Shown one piece after another: positions 14,898-57,713 of a stretch of DNA of 64,000 nucleotides; position 1 is the stretch's first letter, and the number at the start of each line of letters is the position of its first letter. Location: assembly GCA_016931255.1 (NCBI GenBank), contig JAFGFG010000009.1:164661-228660 (forward strand), read 5' to 3'. Made by a program: the position numbers and the translations under genes. The stretch comes from Candidatus Aenigmatarchaeota archaeon (GTDB lineage Archaea; Aenigmatarchaeota; Aenigmatarchaeia; QMZP01; JAFGSV01). Below the pieces are notes generated by a model. The model had not been told where the DNA came from. It ran no database searches and saw only the letters and a list, made by a program, of their open reading frames with translations.

Positions 14898-17069
14898 CTA
14901 ACTTTTTCCGAAATTCCTGCCTACCAATGAGAGATCATCTATGCATATAACGCCATCTTTGTTAAGGTCAGCTAATGGATTCCATTTGTCCTGTCTTTGC
15001 GGTAAACAATCGCATGAACCGCCTACAATGTAATCCGATGCACATGATTTCATTGATTTGGCTACTATTACGAGGTCTTTAACATCCACTATATCGTCAC
15101 CGTTGGCATCGCCTTTAGGCTTGCATTCACAACTTCCATAACAGTAATCGTCAATGTTGCAGTCTCCATCACTTTCACACTCAGCACCGCACTGTATGAT
15201 GTCGCATGTGTGTGTCAGCGTAACAGTTCCAGTTGTGCATACATCATTGGCTTCGTCACAGCTTGATGTGAATCCCGGGAACCAGTCCCATGTGAATGCT
15301 ATGCTGTCAGGGTCATTCGTGCATGTGGCTATTGAGAGAATATTATTGGCTGAACAATCAACTGCAATTCCAGCTTGGCAATCCAGAAGTGCGTCACATG
15401 TCTCACTGCCGTCGCACCAAAGTTCATTGTCACAGTTCCCATTATTTGGTGTATTTACTATCACATCATTTATTTCATCACAACTGTCGTCAGTGCATGT
15501 TACACCATCGTCTACAACAGGAGGAGTTCCTGCCTGACAGTCAAGGAGTGCGTCACAGAATTCATTCCCATTACAGAAAAGAGTGTCATCACAGAGAGCG
15601 TTATTTACCGAGTTCTCACATGAGTCTGTTTCCTCGTCGCACGAATCAACAGTGCAGCCTACGCCGTCCGAGCAGTCTCTGGATTCGCAACTGCATTCCC
15701 CAGACTGGCACACATCATTCACTGTGCAGAAGTTCCCGTCGTCGCAGGGCGTCCCATCATCCTTGTTGCTGCTCGTACCGGTGTCGACCCACTGCGTGTC
15801 CGTCACGGAGTACTCGCATCCTGAACCTCCACATATGTAATCCCTGTATTCCTCTTCCTTCTGCTCTTTTTCAGTGCACTCGCCGGTGGATACCCACTGT
15901 ATCTCTCCTGTGTCGTACCAGACGTCTGATGCATTACAATCCTCTGTGAGATAGAAACATGAACAGTCGCTCTCGCACGAGCCGCCGTAATTGTAGACAT
16001 CGCCTACACACTTGTCGCTGCACGGATTCTGGGAGTCGCATTCCGCACCGCACTGGGAAACGTTGCATGTGCTCGTTATGCTTACGGTTCCGGTAGTGCA
16101 CACGTCGTTCTCCTCATCGCATGCCGATACGAATCCAGTGAAAACATCCAGTGTCCAATCGTAGCCGTCAGGTGTGTAACTGCATATTGAAATCGGTTCT
16201 ATGTCATTGTTGGTACAGTCAAACGGCTGGAAGAAGCATCCGTCAGGACCCATGCATTCACCGTCATGTCCTTCGCACCAAAGACCGCTTTCAGGAAGCA
16301 GACACAATGCATCCCCATCGTCATCAATCACTCCATTGCAATCGCTATCATTTCCATCACATACTTCATCCACGCTTTCATCAGCGCTTGCACCAGGGTT
16401 CGTGGAGCAGTCAGCAGTGCTTGTTCCCGAACACTCGACCAGTCCCAGTCCGCACTTTCCAATGCCGTCGCATGTCTGGTTTATGTTCAGGCCCTGATAA
16501 GTGAAATCCTCATCACTCAATCCATCGCAGTCATCATCGAGGGCGTTGCAGGTTTCCGATGCAGAATTGTCACGCGTACCGCCCGGGTTCGACCAGCATG
16601 ATGCTGTATTTACATTAAAACACTCGACTTTACCAAAGCCACATGTACCGATTCCATAGCATCCCTGTCCGACATATCTAGACTCTTCATAAACAGGATC
16701 ATCATAATAAAATTCTTCGTCTGTACTGCCGTCGCAGTCATTGTCAAATGTATCGCATATTTCAACGCTAGAGTTATCATGACTTCCACCAGGATTTGTC
16801 CAACAATCTACCTCATTTGTAAAGTTCTCACACTCGACTTTACCAAAGCCACATGTACCGATTCCATAGCATCCCTGTCCGACATATCTAGACTCTTCAT
16901 AAACAGGATCATTATATTCGTCTATGTATCCATCTCCATCATTGTCGATACCATCGCAAATCTCAGTAGCGGCTTTGACATTAGTTGGAGCAAAAAGAAG
17001 AACTAAAGTTACGACTAAAAGAAGAGCCAGTGGAATTGGGCTAGATTTTGTCATCTTAATCCCATCCAT
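14898..17069 (-). CDS. Secreted Cys/Asp-rich protein with MopE-like C-x-DNDCDG-x-DE repeats, internally duplicated Cys modules and a C-terminal dockerin type-I module
   Basis: It has a Sec signal peptide (cleavage after VKA) and four repeats of the form EICDGIDNDGDGYIDE / EICDTFDNDCDGSTDEE. The segment YNDPVYEESRYVGQGCYGIGTCGFGKVEC is duplicated. The C-terminus reads DANGDDIVDVKDLVIVAKSM...DLNKDGVICIDDLSLVGRNF, a paired Ca-binding dockerin repeat. Confidence 0.7.
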   Translation of the reverse strand: MDGIKMTKSSPIPLALLLVVTLVLLFAPTNVKAATEICDGIDNDGDGYIDEYNDPVYEESRYVGQGCYGIGTCGFGKVECENFTNEVDCWTNPGGSHDNSSVEICDTFDNDCDGSTDEEFYYDDPVYEESRYVGQGCYGIGTCGFGKVECFNVNTASCWSNPGGTRDNSASETCNALDDDCDGLSDEDFTYQGLNINQTCDGIGKCGLGLVECSGTSTADCSTNPGASADESVDEVCDGNDSDCNGVIDDDGDALCLLPESGLWCEGHDGECMGPDGCFFQPFDCTNNDIEPISICSYTPDGYDWTLDVFTGFVSACDEENDVCTTGTVSITSTCNVSQCGAECDSQNPCSDKCVGDVYNYGGSCESDCSCFYLTEDCNASDVWYDTGEIQWVSTGECTEKEQKEEEYRDYICGGSGCEYSVTDTQWVDTGTSSNKDDGTPCDDGNFCTVNDVCQSGECSCESRDCSDGVGCTVDSCDEETDSCENSVNNALCDDTLFCNGNEFCDALLDCQAGTPPVVDDGVTCTDDSCDEINDVIVNTPNNGNCDNELWCDGSETCDALLDCQAGIAVDCSANNILSIATCTNDPDSIAFTWDWFPGFTSSCDEANDVCTTGTVTLTHTCDIIQCGAECESDGDCNIDDYCYGSCECKPKGDANGDDIVDVKDLVIVAKSMKSCASDYIVGGSCDCLPQRQDKWNPLADLNKDGVICIDDLSLVGRNFGKS
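16621..16922. repeat. Intragenic direct repeat. Two identical 82-bp copies (16621-16702 and 16841-16922) lie 220 bp apart
   Basis: The copies begin cactcgactttaccaaagccacatgtaccgattccatagcatccctgtccgacatatctagactcttcataaacaggatc and match exactly. Each encodes one of the duplicated YNDPVYEESRYVGQGCYGIGTCGFGKVEC segments. Confidence 0.85.
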
Positions 17070-17253
17070 ATTAGATTCTTGGTTACTTGGATAATTAATA
17101 TTTATCGATTGTATTTAATACTGTGAAGTAGTTACTTATAAAGATTTCCACCCTTTTTTAAGGTGAAAAGCTTTCCAAAAATATGATTTATGTTTAAACG
17201 GTCATGTATAAATCTTATACAAGCTTATAAAACTTACTCAAATAATTTGAATT

Positions 17254-17676
17254 ATGGATTGGCTTATAATGCCAAAAAGACAGTTCTTATACGATTTCTT
17301 ATACATTTTCATATTGAAATTCAGACAAAAATCACTTTTTACTTTTGTTGGACGGGGGATGCTGCTGATGTCTGACATTCCAATGCGCTACTATAAAATC
17401 ATTGATATTCATGGCAGGCTGAAAACTGTTTACAGGCCGGTTCATATGATGCAGCCCTATGTTGATACGGGATTGGCTATGGAAAGACTTTCTGATTATG
17501 ATGGCTGGAGACGTTGTTACAAAGGTATCAGGAAAGCTGGCGGTGGAAGAATTGAGGTTGAGCCTTTCAAATGGGATCACGAGAAGATGGCAGAGGCTTA
17601 CGCGCCACTCATGGCCGCTTACAGAAAAATACTTTCAGGTCAGATATTACCGCCAGAATATAGGAGTGTAGCGTGA
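17254..17676 (+). CDS. Hypothetical protein. The start probably lies downstream at about 17359 (MLLMSDIPMRYY...), based on the composition shift
   Basis: The first about 35 codons are AT-rich promoter-like DNA. The remainder has coding-like composition and no recognisable domain. Confidence 0.35.
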   Translation: MDWLIMPKRQFLYDFLYIFILKFRQKSLFTFVGRGMLLMSDIPMRYYKIIDIHGRLKTVYRPVHMMQPYVDTGLAMERLSDYDGWRRCYKGIRKAGGGRIEVEPFKWDHEKMAEAYAPLMAAYRKILSGQILPPEYRSVA

Positions 17677-17724
17677 CAAATCCCGCATGTTTCACGATTC
17701 CTAAAAATATAGAGGTGAAATAAA

Positions 17725-17919
17725 ATGGAAATTAAATTAAAACGTGACTGGAGAGGAAATTACAAAGGAATGGAAATAACTGGTCAGGAACATGAAGTCG
17801 AGGACGTTGGCATGTACAAGAACATCATAGAGATGTACATGAAGGAAAACGATATCGAGAAGATTGAAGGCAACTCCGGATTTGACCTCGCAAATAGACT
17901 TCGCAGAGGTGACTATTGA
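17725..17919 (+). CDS. Mini-protein 1 of 5 (64 aa) in a tandem paralogous array
   Basis: Its own SD (agaggtga) lies 8 nt upstream. The stop overlaps the next start (ATGA). Confidence 0.5.
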   Translation: MEIKLKRDWRGNYKGMEITGQEHEVEDVGMYKNIIEMYMKENDIEKIEGNSGFDLANRLRRGDY

Positions 17920-18098
17920 TGGCAGATGGGGAAGTCAAAGTCACCATTACCGAAGATATCAAGTATAAGGGAGTCTTCAGGAAGAGCACAGAGTACATAA
18001 CTGAGGTGAAGATTGAAGGTGAAGGCGACCTTGGGAAATTAGCAAACAACTTCGGAACTTACATTGATAGCAGAAGCATGAATTCATATGAGGAGTGA
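17916..18098 (+). CDS. Mini-protein 2 of 5 (60 aa)
   Basis: An SD (gaggtga) lies upstream. The sequence GEVKVTITEDIKYKG...EGEGDLGKLANNF is paralogous to neighbours 3 and 4. Confidence 0.5.
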   Translation: MMADGEVKVTITEDIKYKGVFRKSTEYITEVKIEGEGDLGKLANNFGTYIDSRSMNSYEE

Positions 18099-18302
18099 TT
18101 GCATATGGGAGAGATAGAAATAAAGGTGAGAGGAAAAGTGGAAGAAAGACTATTCGGAGAAGGAGTGAAAGTCTCCGGCTCTGGAGAATTCTCGACCGAT
18201 GACCACAGTTATAGTGAGACATTAGGCTCATCTGTTCCGCATTATGCAAGCAGGTTGGCTGAAGTTTCATCTTCTCGGCATAACGAGAAGTATGAGAAGT
18301 GA
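18099..18302 (+). CDS. Mini-protein 3 of 5 (67 aa)
   Basis: An SD (aggagtga) lies upstream. The sequence GEIEIKVRGKVEE...GEGVKVSGSGEF...HYASRLAEV is present. Confidence 0.5.
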   Translation: MHMGEIEIKVRGKVEERLFGEGVKVSGSGEFSTDDHSYSETLGSSVPHYASRLAEVSSSRHNEKYEK

Positions 18303-18306
18303 TAAA

Positions 18307-18519
18307 ATGAATTACAGCGGAAGTTTCAATTTTGAAGGAGAAGCATACAGAAGAAGTGATGACCATTCAGGAGTAAGAGGTTCAGGTAATCTCTACAGCA
18401 ACGATAAAGACATCGCAATAAATCTTTCGCACTCAGTACCAGATGCCGCACAGTGGGCGGCAGGACATGCATCGGACATGGTTCGGAGCATAAGATTAAG
18501 TAAGGAAGCACATAGGTGA
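18307..18519 (+). CDS. Mini-protein 4 of 5 (70 aa)
   Basis: The start is re-set to the Met that follows an SD-like gagaagtga. The sequence SGSFNFEGEAYRR...GSGNLYSNDKD...GHASDMVRSIRL is present. Confidence 0.45.
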   Translation: MNYSGSFNFEGEAYRRSDDHSGVRGSGNLYSNDKDIAINLSHSVPDAAQWAAGHASDMVRSIRLSKEAHR

Positions 18520-18525
18520 ATAGAA

Positions 18526-18660
18526 TGTTCGGTGGTAGATTCAGATTCAGCTTTGATGACATAGATGGTCATCGGGATAACTACAGGTACTCTGCATCAG
18601 CTTCTCATGGCTACCTGAACAGAATACTCGACAGGAAGCTAAGAGGTCTTTACATTTAGG
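18526..18660 (+). CDS. Mini-protein 5 of 5 (44 aa, below the ORF-track cutoff)
   Basis: An SD (aggtga) lies 6 nt upstream of the ATG. The sequence MFGGRFRFSFDDIDGHRDNYRYSASASHGYLNRILDRKLRGLYI shares the C-terminal [YL]-[AL]-[SN]-R-[LI] motif with the other four. Confidence 0.4.
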
Positions 18661-18789
18661 GCGGCGACGCCCTTTTGAATTTTTGTATCATGGTAAGCCA
18701 ATAAATGATTCAGTCGGATATTTCTTATTTCGTGCTAGAAAATTGATATTAAGAAAGACGCCCAATTATTTAATAACAGGTGTTAAACC

Positions 18790-21700
18790 GTGGCTTTGGA
18801 AGATGGCGCGACCAAAAACAGAGTTGTTGTTATAGCCTTGAGCATAGCGCTCGTATTCGCTGTTTATTTCATTCCGGCTAATTTCACGGGTTTTGTGGCT
18901 TATGCTGTTACTGAGGAAACAGTTGATGGGGAAGGAACGACTCTGGGTGATGGTACTCTTCAAGGAGCTACAGATTACACAGACACTAATTCATTCGACG
19001 GAAACTTTGAGTACATAGAAGAAAATATCAGTAGAAGAGTTAAATGGGACTACGTCTTTAATACAAATTATAATGACACAATACCAGCTAGAATGGAATT
19101 TTTTGCATATTATGTAAATTTTGCAGAATTTGTGATGTTTGGTATTTATAATTATGAATTTTCTCAGTGGGATGTATTGAATCAAACTACACAAAAAAAT
19201 CAAAATTTAAATCTTACATACGTGTTCTCTTGGGATGTAAAGAATCTGACAGATTATATAAATCCAGTAAATGGTGAAATCAAGATATACTTTGAAGACG
19301 TCAACTCCTCGTCCATTCAAAATCTATTTTCAATCGACTACCTCGCCATCAACGTCACTGTGTCGCCGCTGTATGACCTTTCCTATGTGCTGACGAACTC
19401 ATCTGGGGATGCGCAGTCGGACGGCGTCAATGTGACCAGAAGCGGCTACCTCAATGCCTCTGCGCTCTGGAACCTCTCAGGTGTGGAGCAGTCACTTGCA
19501 TGGCTCAATGCAAGCGGCTATGTGAGCACATACAGCTTCCCTCACTACGATTCCAATGACAACTGGACGAATCATACTTTCAACTTCACGAACTATACGC
19601 TGTGCCCGGTTGCCGGGAATGTCAGTGTGAGGCTGAAGGCTTACGATGAGTTCTACCAGCAGAACTTCACGCAGGAGACGCGGTACTTCTACCTGTGGGG
19701 GCAGAGTGCACTTGGAAGCACGATGCTGGTGAATGCCTCGATATACGATGAGAATTATACGATTGCATCCGGCTCTGTTTATCAGGTTTCCTGCATTGTC
19801 ATGGACGCCAACAGCAGTGCTGCTGTTCCCGGCCATAACGTCACTTTCTACGAGGACCATGCTTTCATAGGGTCGGCACTTACGAATTCTACGGGATGGG
19901 CGGGTTTTGTCCATACAGCTTCCAGTGGTGCGGGAAGCCATGACATCATCTGCAACATAACCGATGATGGTTCCGTTTATTATACACTCGGCGGGGCGAA
20001 CACCACCAACACGACAGTCTATTACATCGATGACGTCTACCCGCCTTATTTCACAGAGGACTGGTTCGAGTATGAGGGGCAGAGGCTTGCCAATACATCC
20101 GGCTATTATGAGGCACCTTTCTACAGGAACGTGACACTCGTGGTCAATGCCAGCGACAACACGACGTACGTCACCAGCGTCATAGCGGAGGTAACGCACA
20201 ACGCAGGCACCCATATCAATCATACGCTGGCTGAAGGAGGAGATGGTTTATGGAGGATGGACTTTGACAATTCAGATGCGACAATGTCACTGAACGCCTC
20301 CCTCACATTCCACTTCTATTATCAGGATGCAGGAGGCAACTGGAACAACACGAATGTCGTCGGGCCAGGAGGCAGCCTGAGCCCGAACTGGACCATGCAC
20401 ATAAACCTCACATCCTGGAATTCGTCCGCAGTGTACAACCGCGGCGAGAACCTCACATTCTTCGCTTCGGACATCCACTGGTTTGCCTTTGATGAGGCCA
20501 ACTGGTCGCTGAATGTGAGCAAGTACAACCAAACAGGCAGCAATCTCTTTACTGGCGGCACGCAGGGATACTTCAATTACAGCGTGAATGCTACAGACCC
20601 TCTGGGCAACTGGTCATTACTGGTCAACACTTCATGGATGGACAACAACGGCACTGCGGACTTCACTTTCAATGTAACGGACCAGCTTTCCGTTGCCTTC
20701 ACATCGCCTGCAGGGACAGTCTTCCAGCCGAGTCAGTCCATTAGTCCAATAGTCACTGTGAAGAATGTGAGAGGAGGGATTGTCCCGTGGAACGTCACTG
20801 TCAACGTATCGTGCAATGGCGGGGAATACATGACGCTACTGAGGTCAGGCAACAGCTACATAATGAACGCATCTGACAACTCGCATACATGCACTGCTCC
20901 GGGTTCTTACAGTGCGTCCTTCAGCATCTCGGCGAATGTCACATGCCCGTACAACAACAGCAATGTGCTTGAGACTCTGTCACTCTCGACTGTGTCTGAA
21001 GGCGGCGGGTCGAATCCACCGGGAAGCAGCGGAAGCACTGTCTACATACCGCCTGCCTGCAACTGCACTGAATGGAAGGACGTGGACTGCGGCTCAGGGA
21101 ACTGCACTGAGGACGAGATGTATCAGGAAAGGGTGTGCGTTCCTTCCGGTTGCGAGGCCGAGGCGAGATGCATAGCTGTATCGGAGTGCAGGGACAGGAA
21201 GAACTTCCAGATAACGTCATACACTGAAGTGGTTGAGGTTACGCAGGGAAAGAACGGCACTGCATTGTTCACAGTGGAGAACACAGGCAACAAGGACTTC
21301 AGCCTTGCGATAAAACTTGACCATGACTGCTGCAGCATGTTTCCGAGATTCAATGAGTTCAGTCTTCCACAGAAGACAAGCGTTAGCATTCCGATAGTCA
21401 TTCATGCACCGCTTTCACAGGAGCCGGGTGAATACACGATGGAGGTGAAATTCACGGAACAGGATTTCGAGAAGACGGAGACCGTGAGGATTATTGTCAA
21501 TCCCAATGAGATGATTGATGAGCTCAGCAGTTTCAGGTCTCTTCTCAACAGCCTGCGGGAGCAGATTGATGTACTGGAGAATGCCGGCGTGGATGTCACA
21601 GGCCTCAGGAGGCAGCTGGACGAGCTGGCAGCAGCCATAGATTCCGCCCAGAGAAGCACGATTGAAGACGACCTGAATGCATTTGGCGCAATGCTGGACA

Positions 21701-22224
21701 GCATCCAGTCGGTTTCTGATTCAGTGAATGAGTCGCTTCTTCCTGTGAAACTGCAGGGATTCTTCTACATGTCATGGTACATGTTCGCAGCGATTTTAAT
21801 GGCTGCTCTGGTTGAGGTGTACCTGCTGAGACAATTCATGCTTCCTCCTGTTATCAATGAGGGAAGAATAAGAAGGCTTCGCGGAAAGCTTGATGATATC
21901 ACAAGTGCAAAGAAAGACACCCTGCGCAAGTACAGCAACAGGAAGATAGATGAGAAGAGCTTCGGGACGCTCTCCGAGAAATACTCCAGCGAAACAAGCA
22001 TGGTGAATTCTGAGATCATCAGGCTGGAGGAAGAGAAGAGGAACGCTCTGTCATCAGGGCCCAGTTTCAGCGGCTTCGCACGATGGCTGCTTCACAGGAA
22101 GACAGAAGAGGAAAAGAAGAGGGAGACGTCATCAAAGAGCAAGGCGAAGAACACGAAGATGATGGATTTCCAGAAAAAGTATCTCGACGCCAAGAAGCGG
22201 CAGGAAGAGATGGACAGAAGATAG
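18790..22224 (+). CDS. Giant N-glycosylated type-I surface membrane protein (1144 aa). It starts with GTG and is a paralog of 1239..4286
   Basis: An N-terminal TM (VVVIALSIALVFAVYFIPA) is followed by a very high density of N-x-S/T sequons. The C-terminal part has a Cys-rich module (PACNCTEWKDVDCGSGNCTEDEMYQERVCVPSGCEAEARC), VENTGNKDFSLAIKLD, a coiled-coil, a TM (FFYMSWYMFAAILMAALVEVYLL) and a K/R/E-rich tail. Confidence 0.7.
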   Translation: MALEDGATKNRVVVIALSIALVFAVYFIPANFTGFVAYAVTEETVDGEGTTLGDGTLQGATDYTDTNSFDGNFEYIEENISRRVKWDYVFNTNYNDTIPARMEFFAYYVNFAEFVMFGIYNYEFSQWDVLNQTTQKNQNLNLTYVFSWDVKNLTDYINPVNGEIKIYFEDVNSSSIQNLFSIDYLAINVTVSPLYDLSYVLTNSSGDAQSDGVNVTRSGYLNASALWNLSGVEQSLAWLNASGYVSTYSFPHYDSNDNWTNHTFNFTNYTLCPVAGNVSVRLKAYDEFYQQNFTQETRYFYLWGQSALGSTMLVNASIYDENYTIASGSVYQVSCIVMDANSSAAVPGHNVTFYEDHAFIGSALTNSTGWAGFVHTASSGAGSHDIICNITDDGSVYYTLGGANTTNTTVYYIDDVYPPYFTEDWFEYEGQRLANTSGYYEAPFYRNVTLVVNASDNTTYVTSVIAEVTHNAGTHINHTLAEGGDGLWRMDFDNSDATMSLNASLTFHFYYQDAGGNWNNTNVVGPGGSLSPNWTMHINLTSWNSSAVYNRGENLTFFASDIHWFAFDEANWSLNVSKYNQTGSNLFTGGTQGYFNYSVNATDPLGNWSLLVNTSWMDNNGTADFTFNVTDQLSVAFTSPAGTVFQPSQSISPIVTVKNVRGGIVPWNVTVNVSCNGGEYMTLLRSGNSYIMNASDNSHTCTAPGSYSASFSISANVTCPYNNSNVLETLSLSTVSEGGGSNPPGSSGSTVYIPPACNCTEWKDVDCGSGNCTEDEMYQERVCVPSGCEAEARCIAVSECRDRKNFQITSYTEVVEVTQGKNGTALFTVENTGNKDFSLAIKLDHDCCSMFPRFNEFSLPQKTSVSIPIVIHAPLSQEPGEYTMEVKFTEQDFEKTETVRIIVNPNEMIDELSSFRSLLNSLREQIDVLENAGVDVTGLRRQLDELAAAIDSAQRSTIEDDLNAFGAMLDSIQSVSDSVNESLLPVKLQGFFYMSWYMFAAILMAALVEVYLLRQFMLPPVINEGRIRRLRGKLDDITSAKKDTLRKYSNRKIDEKSFGTLSEKYSSETSMVNSEIIRLEEEKRNALSSGPSFSGFARWLLHRKTEEEKKRETSSKSKAKNTKMMDFQKKYLDAKKRQEEMDRR

Positions 22225-53755: not shown

Positions 53756-53789
53756 TGCTTTATTTTTCGTCAGAGAATTAAAAAAACAG

Positions 53790-53862
53790 CGCCCCGACCG
53801 GGATTTGAACCCGGGTCATGACCGTGACAGGGTCATATGCTAGGCCACTACACCATCGAGGC
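53790..53862 (-). tRNA. tRNA-Asp (GUC)
   Basis: The minus strand reads GCCTCGA-TG-GTGT-AGTGGCCTA-GCAT-A-TGACC-CTGTCAC-GGTCA-TGAC-CCGGG-TTCAAAT-CCCGG-TCGGGGC plus discriminator G. It forms a cloverleaf with anticodon loop CUGUCAC. Confidence 0.85.
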
Positions 53863-57542: not shown

Positions 57543-57617
57543 GGGATCGTAGTGTAGCTTGGCCTAGCATCGGAGCTTCGGGAGTTCCAGACCTGAGTTC
57601 AAATCTCAGCGATCCCA
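57543..57617 (+). tRNA. tRNA-Pro (CGG)
   Basis: GGGATCG-TA-GTGT-AGCTTGGCCTA-GCAT-C-GGAGC-TTCGGGA-GTTCC-AGAC-CTGAG-TTCAAAT-CTCAG-CGATCCC-A. Confidence 0.85.
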
Positions 57618-57638
57618 TCAGTAATCAACTGGAAATGG

Positions 57639-57713
57639 GGGGCCGTAGTGTAGCTTGGCCTATCACTCGGGGCTGGGGGTCCCGTAACCGGAGTTCGAAT
57701 CTCCGCGGCCCCA
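57639..57713 (+). tRNA. tRNA-Pro (GGG)
   Basis: GGGGCCG-TA-GTGT-AGCTTGGCCTA-TCAC-T-CGGGG-CTGGGGG-TCCCG-TAAC-CGGAG-TTCGAAT-CTCCG-CGGCCCC-A. Confidence 0.8.

Follow-up and report, generated by a model that had tools for sequence, protein, structure and literature searches.

A strain-specific array of coupled mini-genes between two surface-protein genes of a Candidatus Aenigmatarchaeota archaeon: a candidate cassette of mobile-element origin

What are five very short genes, arranged back to back and each led by its own Shine-Dalgarno (SD) sequence, doing between two large surface-protein genes of an archaeon, and where did they come from? The question is raised by a 64,000-nucleotide stretch of the genome of a Candidatus Aenigmatarchaeota archaeon (GenBank assembly GCA_016931255.1, contig JAFGFG010000009.1, positions 164,661 to 228,660 of the forward strand), referred to here as the window. 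A previous reading made from the DNA letters only (the sequence-only reading) placed there an AT-rich interval with one open reading frame (ORF) of about 106 amino acids (aa) and five smaller ORFs, and regarded it as the window's best candidate for an undescribed small-protein system. The coordinates agree with its placement of the interval between a divergently transcribed gene with MopE motifs and a giant surface-protein gene. On balance, and with reservations, the reading favored here is that the interval is a mobile-element-derived cassette, lodged in the divergent promoter region of the two surface-protein genes and organized as one SD-coupled operon consisting of gene A and the mini-genes p1 to p5.

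The interval is strain-specific. In the closest available genome, L002, the neighboring proteins are 95% (TATA-binding protein, TBP), 97% (EamA) and 95% (thioredoxin reductase) identical to those of the window, and the same two surface-protein genes stand head to head with no island between them. Scans anchored on TBP assign the window to Candidatus Aenigmatarchaeota (DPANN). Its place is taken by 17 bp (TGTTCTACGGAATGCCC), in which a trace of the island was searched for and none was found. The segments on either side of the island (17070-17148 and 18739-18789) align cleanly with L002 at 92–94% identity. Among 48 related Aenigmatarchaeota loci anchored on TBP, neither island-like sequence nor genes of the gene A-bearing elements described below were found. 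Because the surface-protein genes of L002 are adjacent without the island, its position beside them is best read as an accident of insertion with no conserved functional linkage, and the envelope-related role once suggested from the neighbors loses its basis.

The island also departs in composition from the rest of the contig, as had been claimed, in GC content, in GC content at third codon positions (GC3) and in host-codon score. The GC content is 0.324 in 17001-17500, 0.42–0.43 in 17501-19000 and 0.41 over the whole island, compared with 0.493 ± 0.021 for long ORFs of the host. The GC3 of p1-p5 is 0.43, which is 3 standard deviations lower than the host value of 0.589 ± 0.048 (42 ORFs). In a composition-corrected host-codon model, the log-likelihood of the island genes lies between that of spurious ORFs and that of real host gene segments. 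The intermediate codon score and the low GC3 fit genes that may be foreign or young.

The connection to mobile elements comes from gene A. A phmmer search of 1.84 billion cluster representatives retrieved four non-self relatives of gene A (52–68% identical, E 3e-19 to 4e-26), and profile searches among 5.8 billion proteins gave a family of 11 members. The family consensus, RYKIID...GLAME.LP...GW..CYKG...EP.EWD...EAYAPL..AY, has 11 invariant and 17 nearly invariant columns; gene A of the island is a member, with significant full-length similarity and the invariant residues conserved. Conservation in the alignment of the 11 members begins only at RYYKIID, which makes ATG 17368 or 17383 the probable start; the NCBI form (JW789_04560) has 140 aa from 17254. 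In the structural model of the gene A product (predicted local distance difference test, pLDDT, 85) there is no helix-turn-helix (HTH), and fold comparison gave no significant match.

Ten contigs, carrying eight of the other family members, have been inspected for the context of gene A. They are 0.9–10 kb in length, have 35–39% GC and are crowded with tiny unannotated genes. A conserved gene of a second family, B (72–87 aa), directly follows A on all of them save the 881-bp contig L053. On contigs L052 and L056, A and B are followed by a very basic protein of ~75 aa, C, and then by a large glycoprotein-like gene, the product of which has a signal peptide and a C-terminal transmembrane segment. 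The genes downstream of A vary among the contigs. L057 encodes a phage-type Dam methyltransferase and L058 a winged helix-turn-helix (wHTH) protein. The N-terminal hairpin motif of A, RYYKIIDIHGRLKTVYR, was compared with RYxYxDxDGxxxxIE, the block at the N-terminus of family B, and scored above 98% of shuffles (p = 0.016), a hint that the two families have an N-terminal module in common. Through gene A the island is connected with small virus- or plasmid-like elements, which makes mobile-element cargo a more economical reading than the earlier proposal of an undescribed small-protein system.

Contig L056 (Logan SRR26113683_1902) has 10,240 bp and a GC content of 38%, and a 30-nt terminal overlap indicates that it is complete and circular. 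It encodes a P-loop ATPase (phrog_5484, E = 1.7e-10), an AbrB-like protein and a protein with a Laminin_G_3 / ConA-like lectin domain, and its glycoprotein-like gene measures 767–773 aa. Small circular viruses or plasmids with a large membrane-anchored glycoprotein gene are known from archaea, for example those with pleolipovirus- or fusellovirus-like genomes. L056 resembles these in its size of ~10 kb, its circular form, its tiny ORFs, its P-loop ATPase, its AbrB-like/wHTH-like content and its glycoprotein-like gene; it differs from them in having no sequence similarity to any described virus family, and the window has only gene A of the set. By BLASTP, gene A is the only one of the window ORFs that resembles proteins of the A-bearing contigs, and the 1144-aa surface protein of the window shows no similarity to the 773-aa glycoprotein-like protein of L056. 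L056 may stand for a group of DPANN viruses or plasmids that has yet to be described. Inovirus-like proviruses have been reported in Aenigmarchaeota (Roux et al. 2019, PMC6813254). The island is like them in host phylum and in its short genes, and unlike them it has neither a pI/Zot-like morphogenesis ATPase nor short coat proteins with a single transmembrane segment. The ATPase of L056 has no Zot match in Pfam.

Integrated remnants of mobile elements and islands of orphan ORFs in archaea provide the nearest parallel. Like the island, they are strain-specific, have lower GC and atypical codons, consist of very short hypothetical genes and have one gene in common with extrachromosomal virus- or plasmid-like elements. 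The island differs from them in being only 1.6 kb long, in having no integrase, attachment (att) sites or tRNA target, and in an operon that looks intact and not degraded. A mobile-element island of tiny hypothetical orphan genes is thus of a familiar kind in archaea; the A family, the p4 family discussed below and the A-B-C-glycoprotein elements are undescribed.

Several observations weigh against an origin from a mobile element. No direct repeat, target-site duplication or att site was found at the island junctions, and the best pair of terminal inverted repeats around A-p5 (31 nt, 74%) is no better than expected by chance. An integrase domain is absent from the flanking genes scanned, and the window shows no mobile-element gene besides gene A; with no integrase in the scanned flanks, no direct repeats at the junctions and only gene A common to the element contigs, the locus falls short of an integrated provirus. 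No relatives of the A-bearing contigs were found in IMG/VR or among GenBank phage records, so that the label "virus-like" derives from gene content and from the circularity of one contig. A single close relative is available, and a deletion in L002 would be the alternative to an insertion here. One homologue of p4 sits on a contig of 71 kb, a length at which no A-family contig is recorded; other archaea may thus have p4 in their chromosomes, as opposed to carrying it as element cargo. Lastly, p1, p2 and p5 have no homologues, and their coding status is judged from translation signals. As for the site itself, the window has a pair of neighboring tRNA-Pro genes (anticodons CGG and GGG) and a tRNA-Asp gene, at 57543-57713 and 53789-53862; none of them adjoins the island, and integration into a tRNA gene is therefore not indicated. 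Rfam families were not found in 16900-19000 at E up to 1.

The missing integration scars are what would be expected if the island were a vertically inherited host operon, lost in L002, whose small cytoplasmic proteins act together with the flanking surface genes in envelope or attachment functions. The position between two surface-protein genes would also suit such an operon, as would possible readout from a resident TATA-like element at the left border and the p4 homologue on the 71-kb contig, apparently without gene A. We regard this explanation as unlikely: the two surface genes are adjacent in L002 without the island, GC3 lies 3 standard deviations below that of host genes, the inspected occurrences of gene A elsewhere are all on small, AT-rich contigs that resemble elements, and the mini-proteins carry no signal peptide or transmembrane segment. 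If the origin from a mobile element is correct, the apparent tie to cell-surface genes stems from the insertion site and not from function.

The features of the locus are given in Table 1.

Table 1. Positions of the island, its genes and signals, and the flanking genes in the window (SD, Shine-Dalgarno sequence; aa, amino acids; pI, isoelectric point)
Feature	Position	Strand	Description
Strain-specific island	17149..18738	+	1,590 bp; replaced by a short filler in the closest relative, L002
Gene A	17359..17676	+	105 aa from 17359; likely ~98-105 aa; rare unnamed family
SD of p1	17712..17718	+	GAGGTGA, 6 nt ahead of ATG
p1	17725..17919	+	64 aa, acidic, pI 5.1
SD of p2	17906..17912	+	GAGGTGA, within 3' end of p1
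p2	17919..18098	+	59 aa, acidic, pI 4.7; best host-codon score of the six genes
SD of p3	18090..18098	+	GAGGAGTGA, includes p2 stop codon
p3	18105..18302	+	65 aa, Ser/Gly-rich
SD of p4	18294..18302	+	GAGAAGTGA, weakest of the five, includes p3 stop codon
p4	18307..18519	+	70 aa
SD of p5	18514..18519	+	AGGTGA, includes p4 stop codon
p5	18525..18659	+	44 aa, basic, pI 9.8; absent from NCBI annotation
Terminator-like element	18658..18685	+	6-bp GC hairpin AGGGCG-GCGA-CGCCCT right after p5 stop, then TTTTGAATTTTT
Imperfect hairpin	17145..17169		TTTCCACCC-TTTTTT-AAGGTGAAAA, exactly at the left junction
723-aa surface-protein gene	14898-17069	-	Cys-rich, MopE-motif, dockerin-like; left of island, divergent
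1144-aa surface-protein gene	18790-22224	+	right of island

The presence of gene A and of five small ORFs back to back agrees with the sequence-only reading; the sizes have been corrected (Table 1), p5 begins at ATG 18525 and not at 18526, and ATG 17919 and 18105 are likelier starts for p2 and p3 than TTG 17916 and 18099. The junction of p1 and p2 is a 1-nt overlap (TGATG), the following junctions have spacers of 6, 4 and 5 nt, and at three of the four the stop codon (of p2, p3 and p4) is embedded in the SD of the next gene. The claim that each mini-gene has its own SD is borne out, with an SD core (at least 5 nt matching the anti-SD complement, 3–8 nt upstream of ATG) at 5/5 mini-genes; the same core is found at 5% of all window ATGs and at 8/42 starts of host long ORFs. 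The ORFs tile 98.8% of 17725-18659, compared with a mean of 19% and a maximum of 76% in 3000 dinucleotide-preserving shuffles. Given this tiling and the 5/5 SD cores over a 5% background, the array is far beyond chance. Gene A and p1-p5 each score best in their own reading frame, and antisense ORFs in the island region score as spurious. The genes p2 and p3 share a reading frame and are separated by TGA and two codons (18096-18104); readthrough is unlikely, since TGA terminates 17/42 of the host long ORFs. In the NCBI annotation, gene A and p1-p4 are hypothetical proteins JW789_04560-04580 of a Candidatus Aenigmarchaeota metagenome-assembled genome, with identical boundaries for p1-p4. The Logan gene call keeps p5 but skips p3 and p4, and small-gene calling is thus inconsistent at the array.

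Homologues have been found for one mini-protein. When the aligned p1-p5 sequences were used as a search profile, all five self proteins came back, as positive controls, together with two further proteins of 70 aa, P0017 and P0018, both 76% identical to p4. Their start and end positions match those of p4, and the C-terminal 40 residues are almost invariant. Two homologues of the same length and 76% identity indicate that p4 is a real, conserved, stand-alone gene. The contigs that encode P0017 and P0018 measure up to 7.8 kb and 71 kb, respectively; since none of the recorded A-family contigs has either length, p4 and A appear separable. The other four mini-proteins (p1, p2, p3 and p5) matched only themselves in this search, the power of which, judged from the self hits, was good for p1 (92 bits) and p3 (88) and poor for p2 (56) and p5 (32). 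Scans of genome, viral and metagenome contigs with concatenated A + p1-p5 gave no match, a weak negative with six 8-mer patterns each, several of them across artificial junctions and none from p4. No match to the island proteins was obtained by tblastn in GenBank phage records. The AlphaFold2 model of p4, of low confidence (pLDDT 54), points to a beta-hairpin followed by a long helix.

These data bear on whether the island is non-functional foreign DNA in decay, in which the mini-ORFs beyond A and p4 would be untranslated or remnants of larger genes. The lack of homologues for p1, p2 and p5 would agree with decay, as would the merely intermediate host-codon scores and the fact that one gene caller missed p3 and p4 and NCBI missed p5. 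In decaying DNA, however, five well-spaced SD-ATG units, 98.8% tiling and stop codons inside the next SD are unexpected, the p4 homologues are intact at 70 aa, and family-B profiles match no frame of the island ORFs. We consider decay to be quite unlikely. The possibility that the array is a broken larger gene, which the sequence-only reading had itself raised, is likewise contradicted by the p4 homologues, which are stand-alone proteins of 70 aa with the same start and end.

The five mini-proteins were described in the sequence-only reading as mutually similar paralogues produced by tandem amplification, and the comparisons support this for one pair. In Smith-Waterman comparisons against shuffles, only p3-p4 of the 10 pairs was elevated (z = 2.9), and the nine others were at chance. 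A profile of the p4 family matched p3 (HHalign P = 7.6e-4) without a shift, residues 19-51 of one pairing with residues 19-51 of the other, as in the alignment of VRGSGNLYSNDK...SHSVP with VSGSGEFSTDDH...GSSVP. In a six-frame search of the whole window, p3 and p4 were each among the best non-self matches of the other. The two genes are probably tandem duplicates that have diverged, to judge from these alignments; the kinship of the remaining mini-proteins is unproven. A motif search across the five gave K[IV]xGxGx[FL] as the best shared pattern, present in p1-p4 and, more weakly, as DIDGHRDN in p5; 3–5% of shuffled sets did equally well (p ~0.03–0.05). The proposed C-terminal motif [YL][AL][SN]R[LI] has no statistical support.

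Comparison with the A-bearing contigs and with known families gave little further similarity. The mini-proteins show no detectable relation to family B or to the other ORFs of those contigs; p1, though in the position of B after A, has no detectable similarity to B (hhalign E = 0.75; hidden Markov model (HMM) score at the level of shuffles). By eye, p1 could be taken for a diverged B (RFSFDDIDG versus RYxYxDxDG; GxLAxxY) and p5 for a B without its middle. This candidate was rejected, as HMM, hhalign and position-specific scoring matrix (PSSM) comparisons with shuffles did not support it; the best single p values were 0.03–0.05, and the combined p was ~0.3 (Fisher, PSSM block tests). The mini-proteins p1-p5 have no Pfam match at E up to 10, including CsbD (PF05532), and no PHROGs, NCBIfam or PADLOC match at E up to 1. 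They are hydrophilic, without Cys, hydrophobic segment, signal peptide or transmembrane segment, in agreement with the earlier description of proteins with no Cys, signal peptide or recognizable domain; p1-p3 are acidic (pI 4.7–5.5).

Under the favored origin from a mobile element, a piece of element DNA would have been inserted into this Aenigmatarchaeota lineage, or kept only in it, and we infer that the event was a gain and not a loss. The inserted DNA would lie in the short promoter region from which the two variable surface-protein genes diverge. The cassette would form a single transcription unit, with gene A first, then the five translationally coupled mini-genes, and an end at the hairpin and T-tract; its genes are presumably co-transcribed and translated. 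Gene A would be the conserved hallmark; the inspected members of its family elsewhere all come from short, AT-rich contigs that are densely packed with genes and look virus- or plasmid-like. The mini-proteins, of 44–70 aa, would be soluble, non-secreted and non-enzymatic, probably with a short beta-hairpin followed by a helix; p4 is conserved elsewhere, p3 would be its diverged duplicate, and p1, p2 and p5 would be fast-evolving orphans. They would act as accessory proteins of a mobile element, most likely as small binders or modulators of host or element macromolecules. Roles as enzymes, secreted peptides or envelope subunits are unlikely; for enzymes, the proteins are too small and too featureless.

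A bolder version would have gene A mark undescribed, circular viruses or plasmids of DPANN archaea of ~10 kb, and p1-p5 represent a captured cassette of acidic binders for anti-defense or host manipulation. This is quite unlikely; if true, these elements would have their first link to a host, and the p1-p5 proteins would be a new family of small effectors in archaea. A related explanation, drawn by analogy with anti-CRISPR/aca loci, is that the island is an anti-defense or host-takeover cassette in which A precedes variable, small, mostly acidic orphans that inhibit by binding. In such loci, as in the island, tandem small acidic fast-evolving orphans lie beside a conserved marker gene of a mobile element: p1-p3 are acidic orphans of 59–65 aa that follow a conserved element gene one after another, and what comes after A differs between contigs. 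The resemblance goes no further, because in contrast to those loci the marker A is not a recognizable HTH regulator and has no known fold, no family match and no known link to defense. No PADLOC match (E up to 1) and no Pfam match to known anti-phage defense or toxin-antitoxin systems was obtained, and no defense system is known in the host, none having been examined. Elsewhere A is followed by the conserved B, and on L052 and L056 also by C and the glycoprotein-like gene, an arrangement more like a structural module. An anti-defense cassette is accordingly judged very unlikely. An array of precursor peptides of the ribosomally synthesized and post-translationally modified type, or a family of CsbD-like stress proteins (PF05532; ~60 aa, hydrophilic and sometimes tandem, like the mini-proteins), both suggested by the sequence-only reading, is hardly credible, because tandem small SD-led genes are its sole support and there is no Cys, no leader shared among p1-p5 and no shared leader/core architecture, pairwise similarity is at chance save for p3-p4, no modifying enzyme, protease or transporter stands beside the array, and neither CsbD nor any other Pfam family matches even at E = 10, nor any NCBIfam family.

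Assignment of mobile elements of DPANN archaea to hosts is very hard. If the origin favored here is correct, its most useful by-product would be that unclassified small AT-rich circular elements, with the A-B-C-glycoprotein module, are linked to an Aenigmatarchaeota host. The practical value would then be modest but real, and no long-standing question is opened. The locus also provides a clear case of mini-genes coupled through SD sequences in a DPANN archaeon, with p5 missing from the public annotation.

A TATA-like element, TTATAAAG, is present just outside the left border of the island, and the imperfect hairpin spans the junction (window 17136-17169). In L002, the counterpart TATA-like element lies ~80 nt upstream of the gene for the 1144-aa protein. 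The insertion may thus have placed the island operon under this putative promoter and moved the promoter away from the surface-protein gene.

The wider neighbors of the island are housekeeping archaeal genes, including those for TBP, a thioredoxin-reductase-like protein, EamA, MscS, PGK and GAPDH; within 5 kb of the array, surface proteins, TBP, EamA and MscS are encoded. The two flanking surface-protein genes vary more than these. The single 723-aa MopE-motif gene has as its counterpart in L002 (1075-4135) a 347-aa ORF followed by ORFs of 407 and 228 aa. The N-terminal 300 aa of the 1144-aa protein are only 61% identical in L002, compared with 95–97% for the housekeeping neighbors. By this sequence comparison, the surface-protein region is hypervariable.

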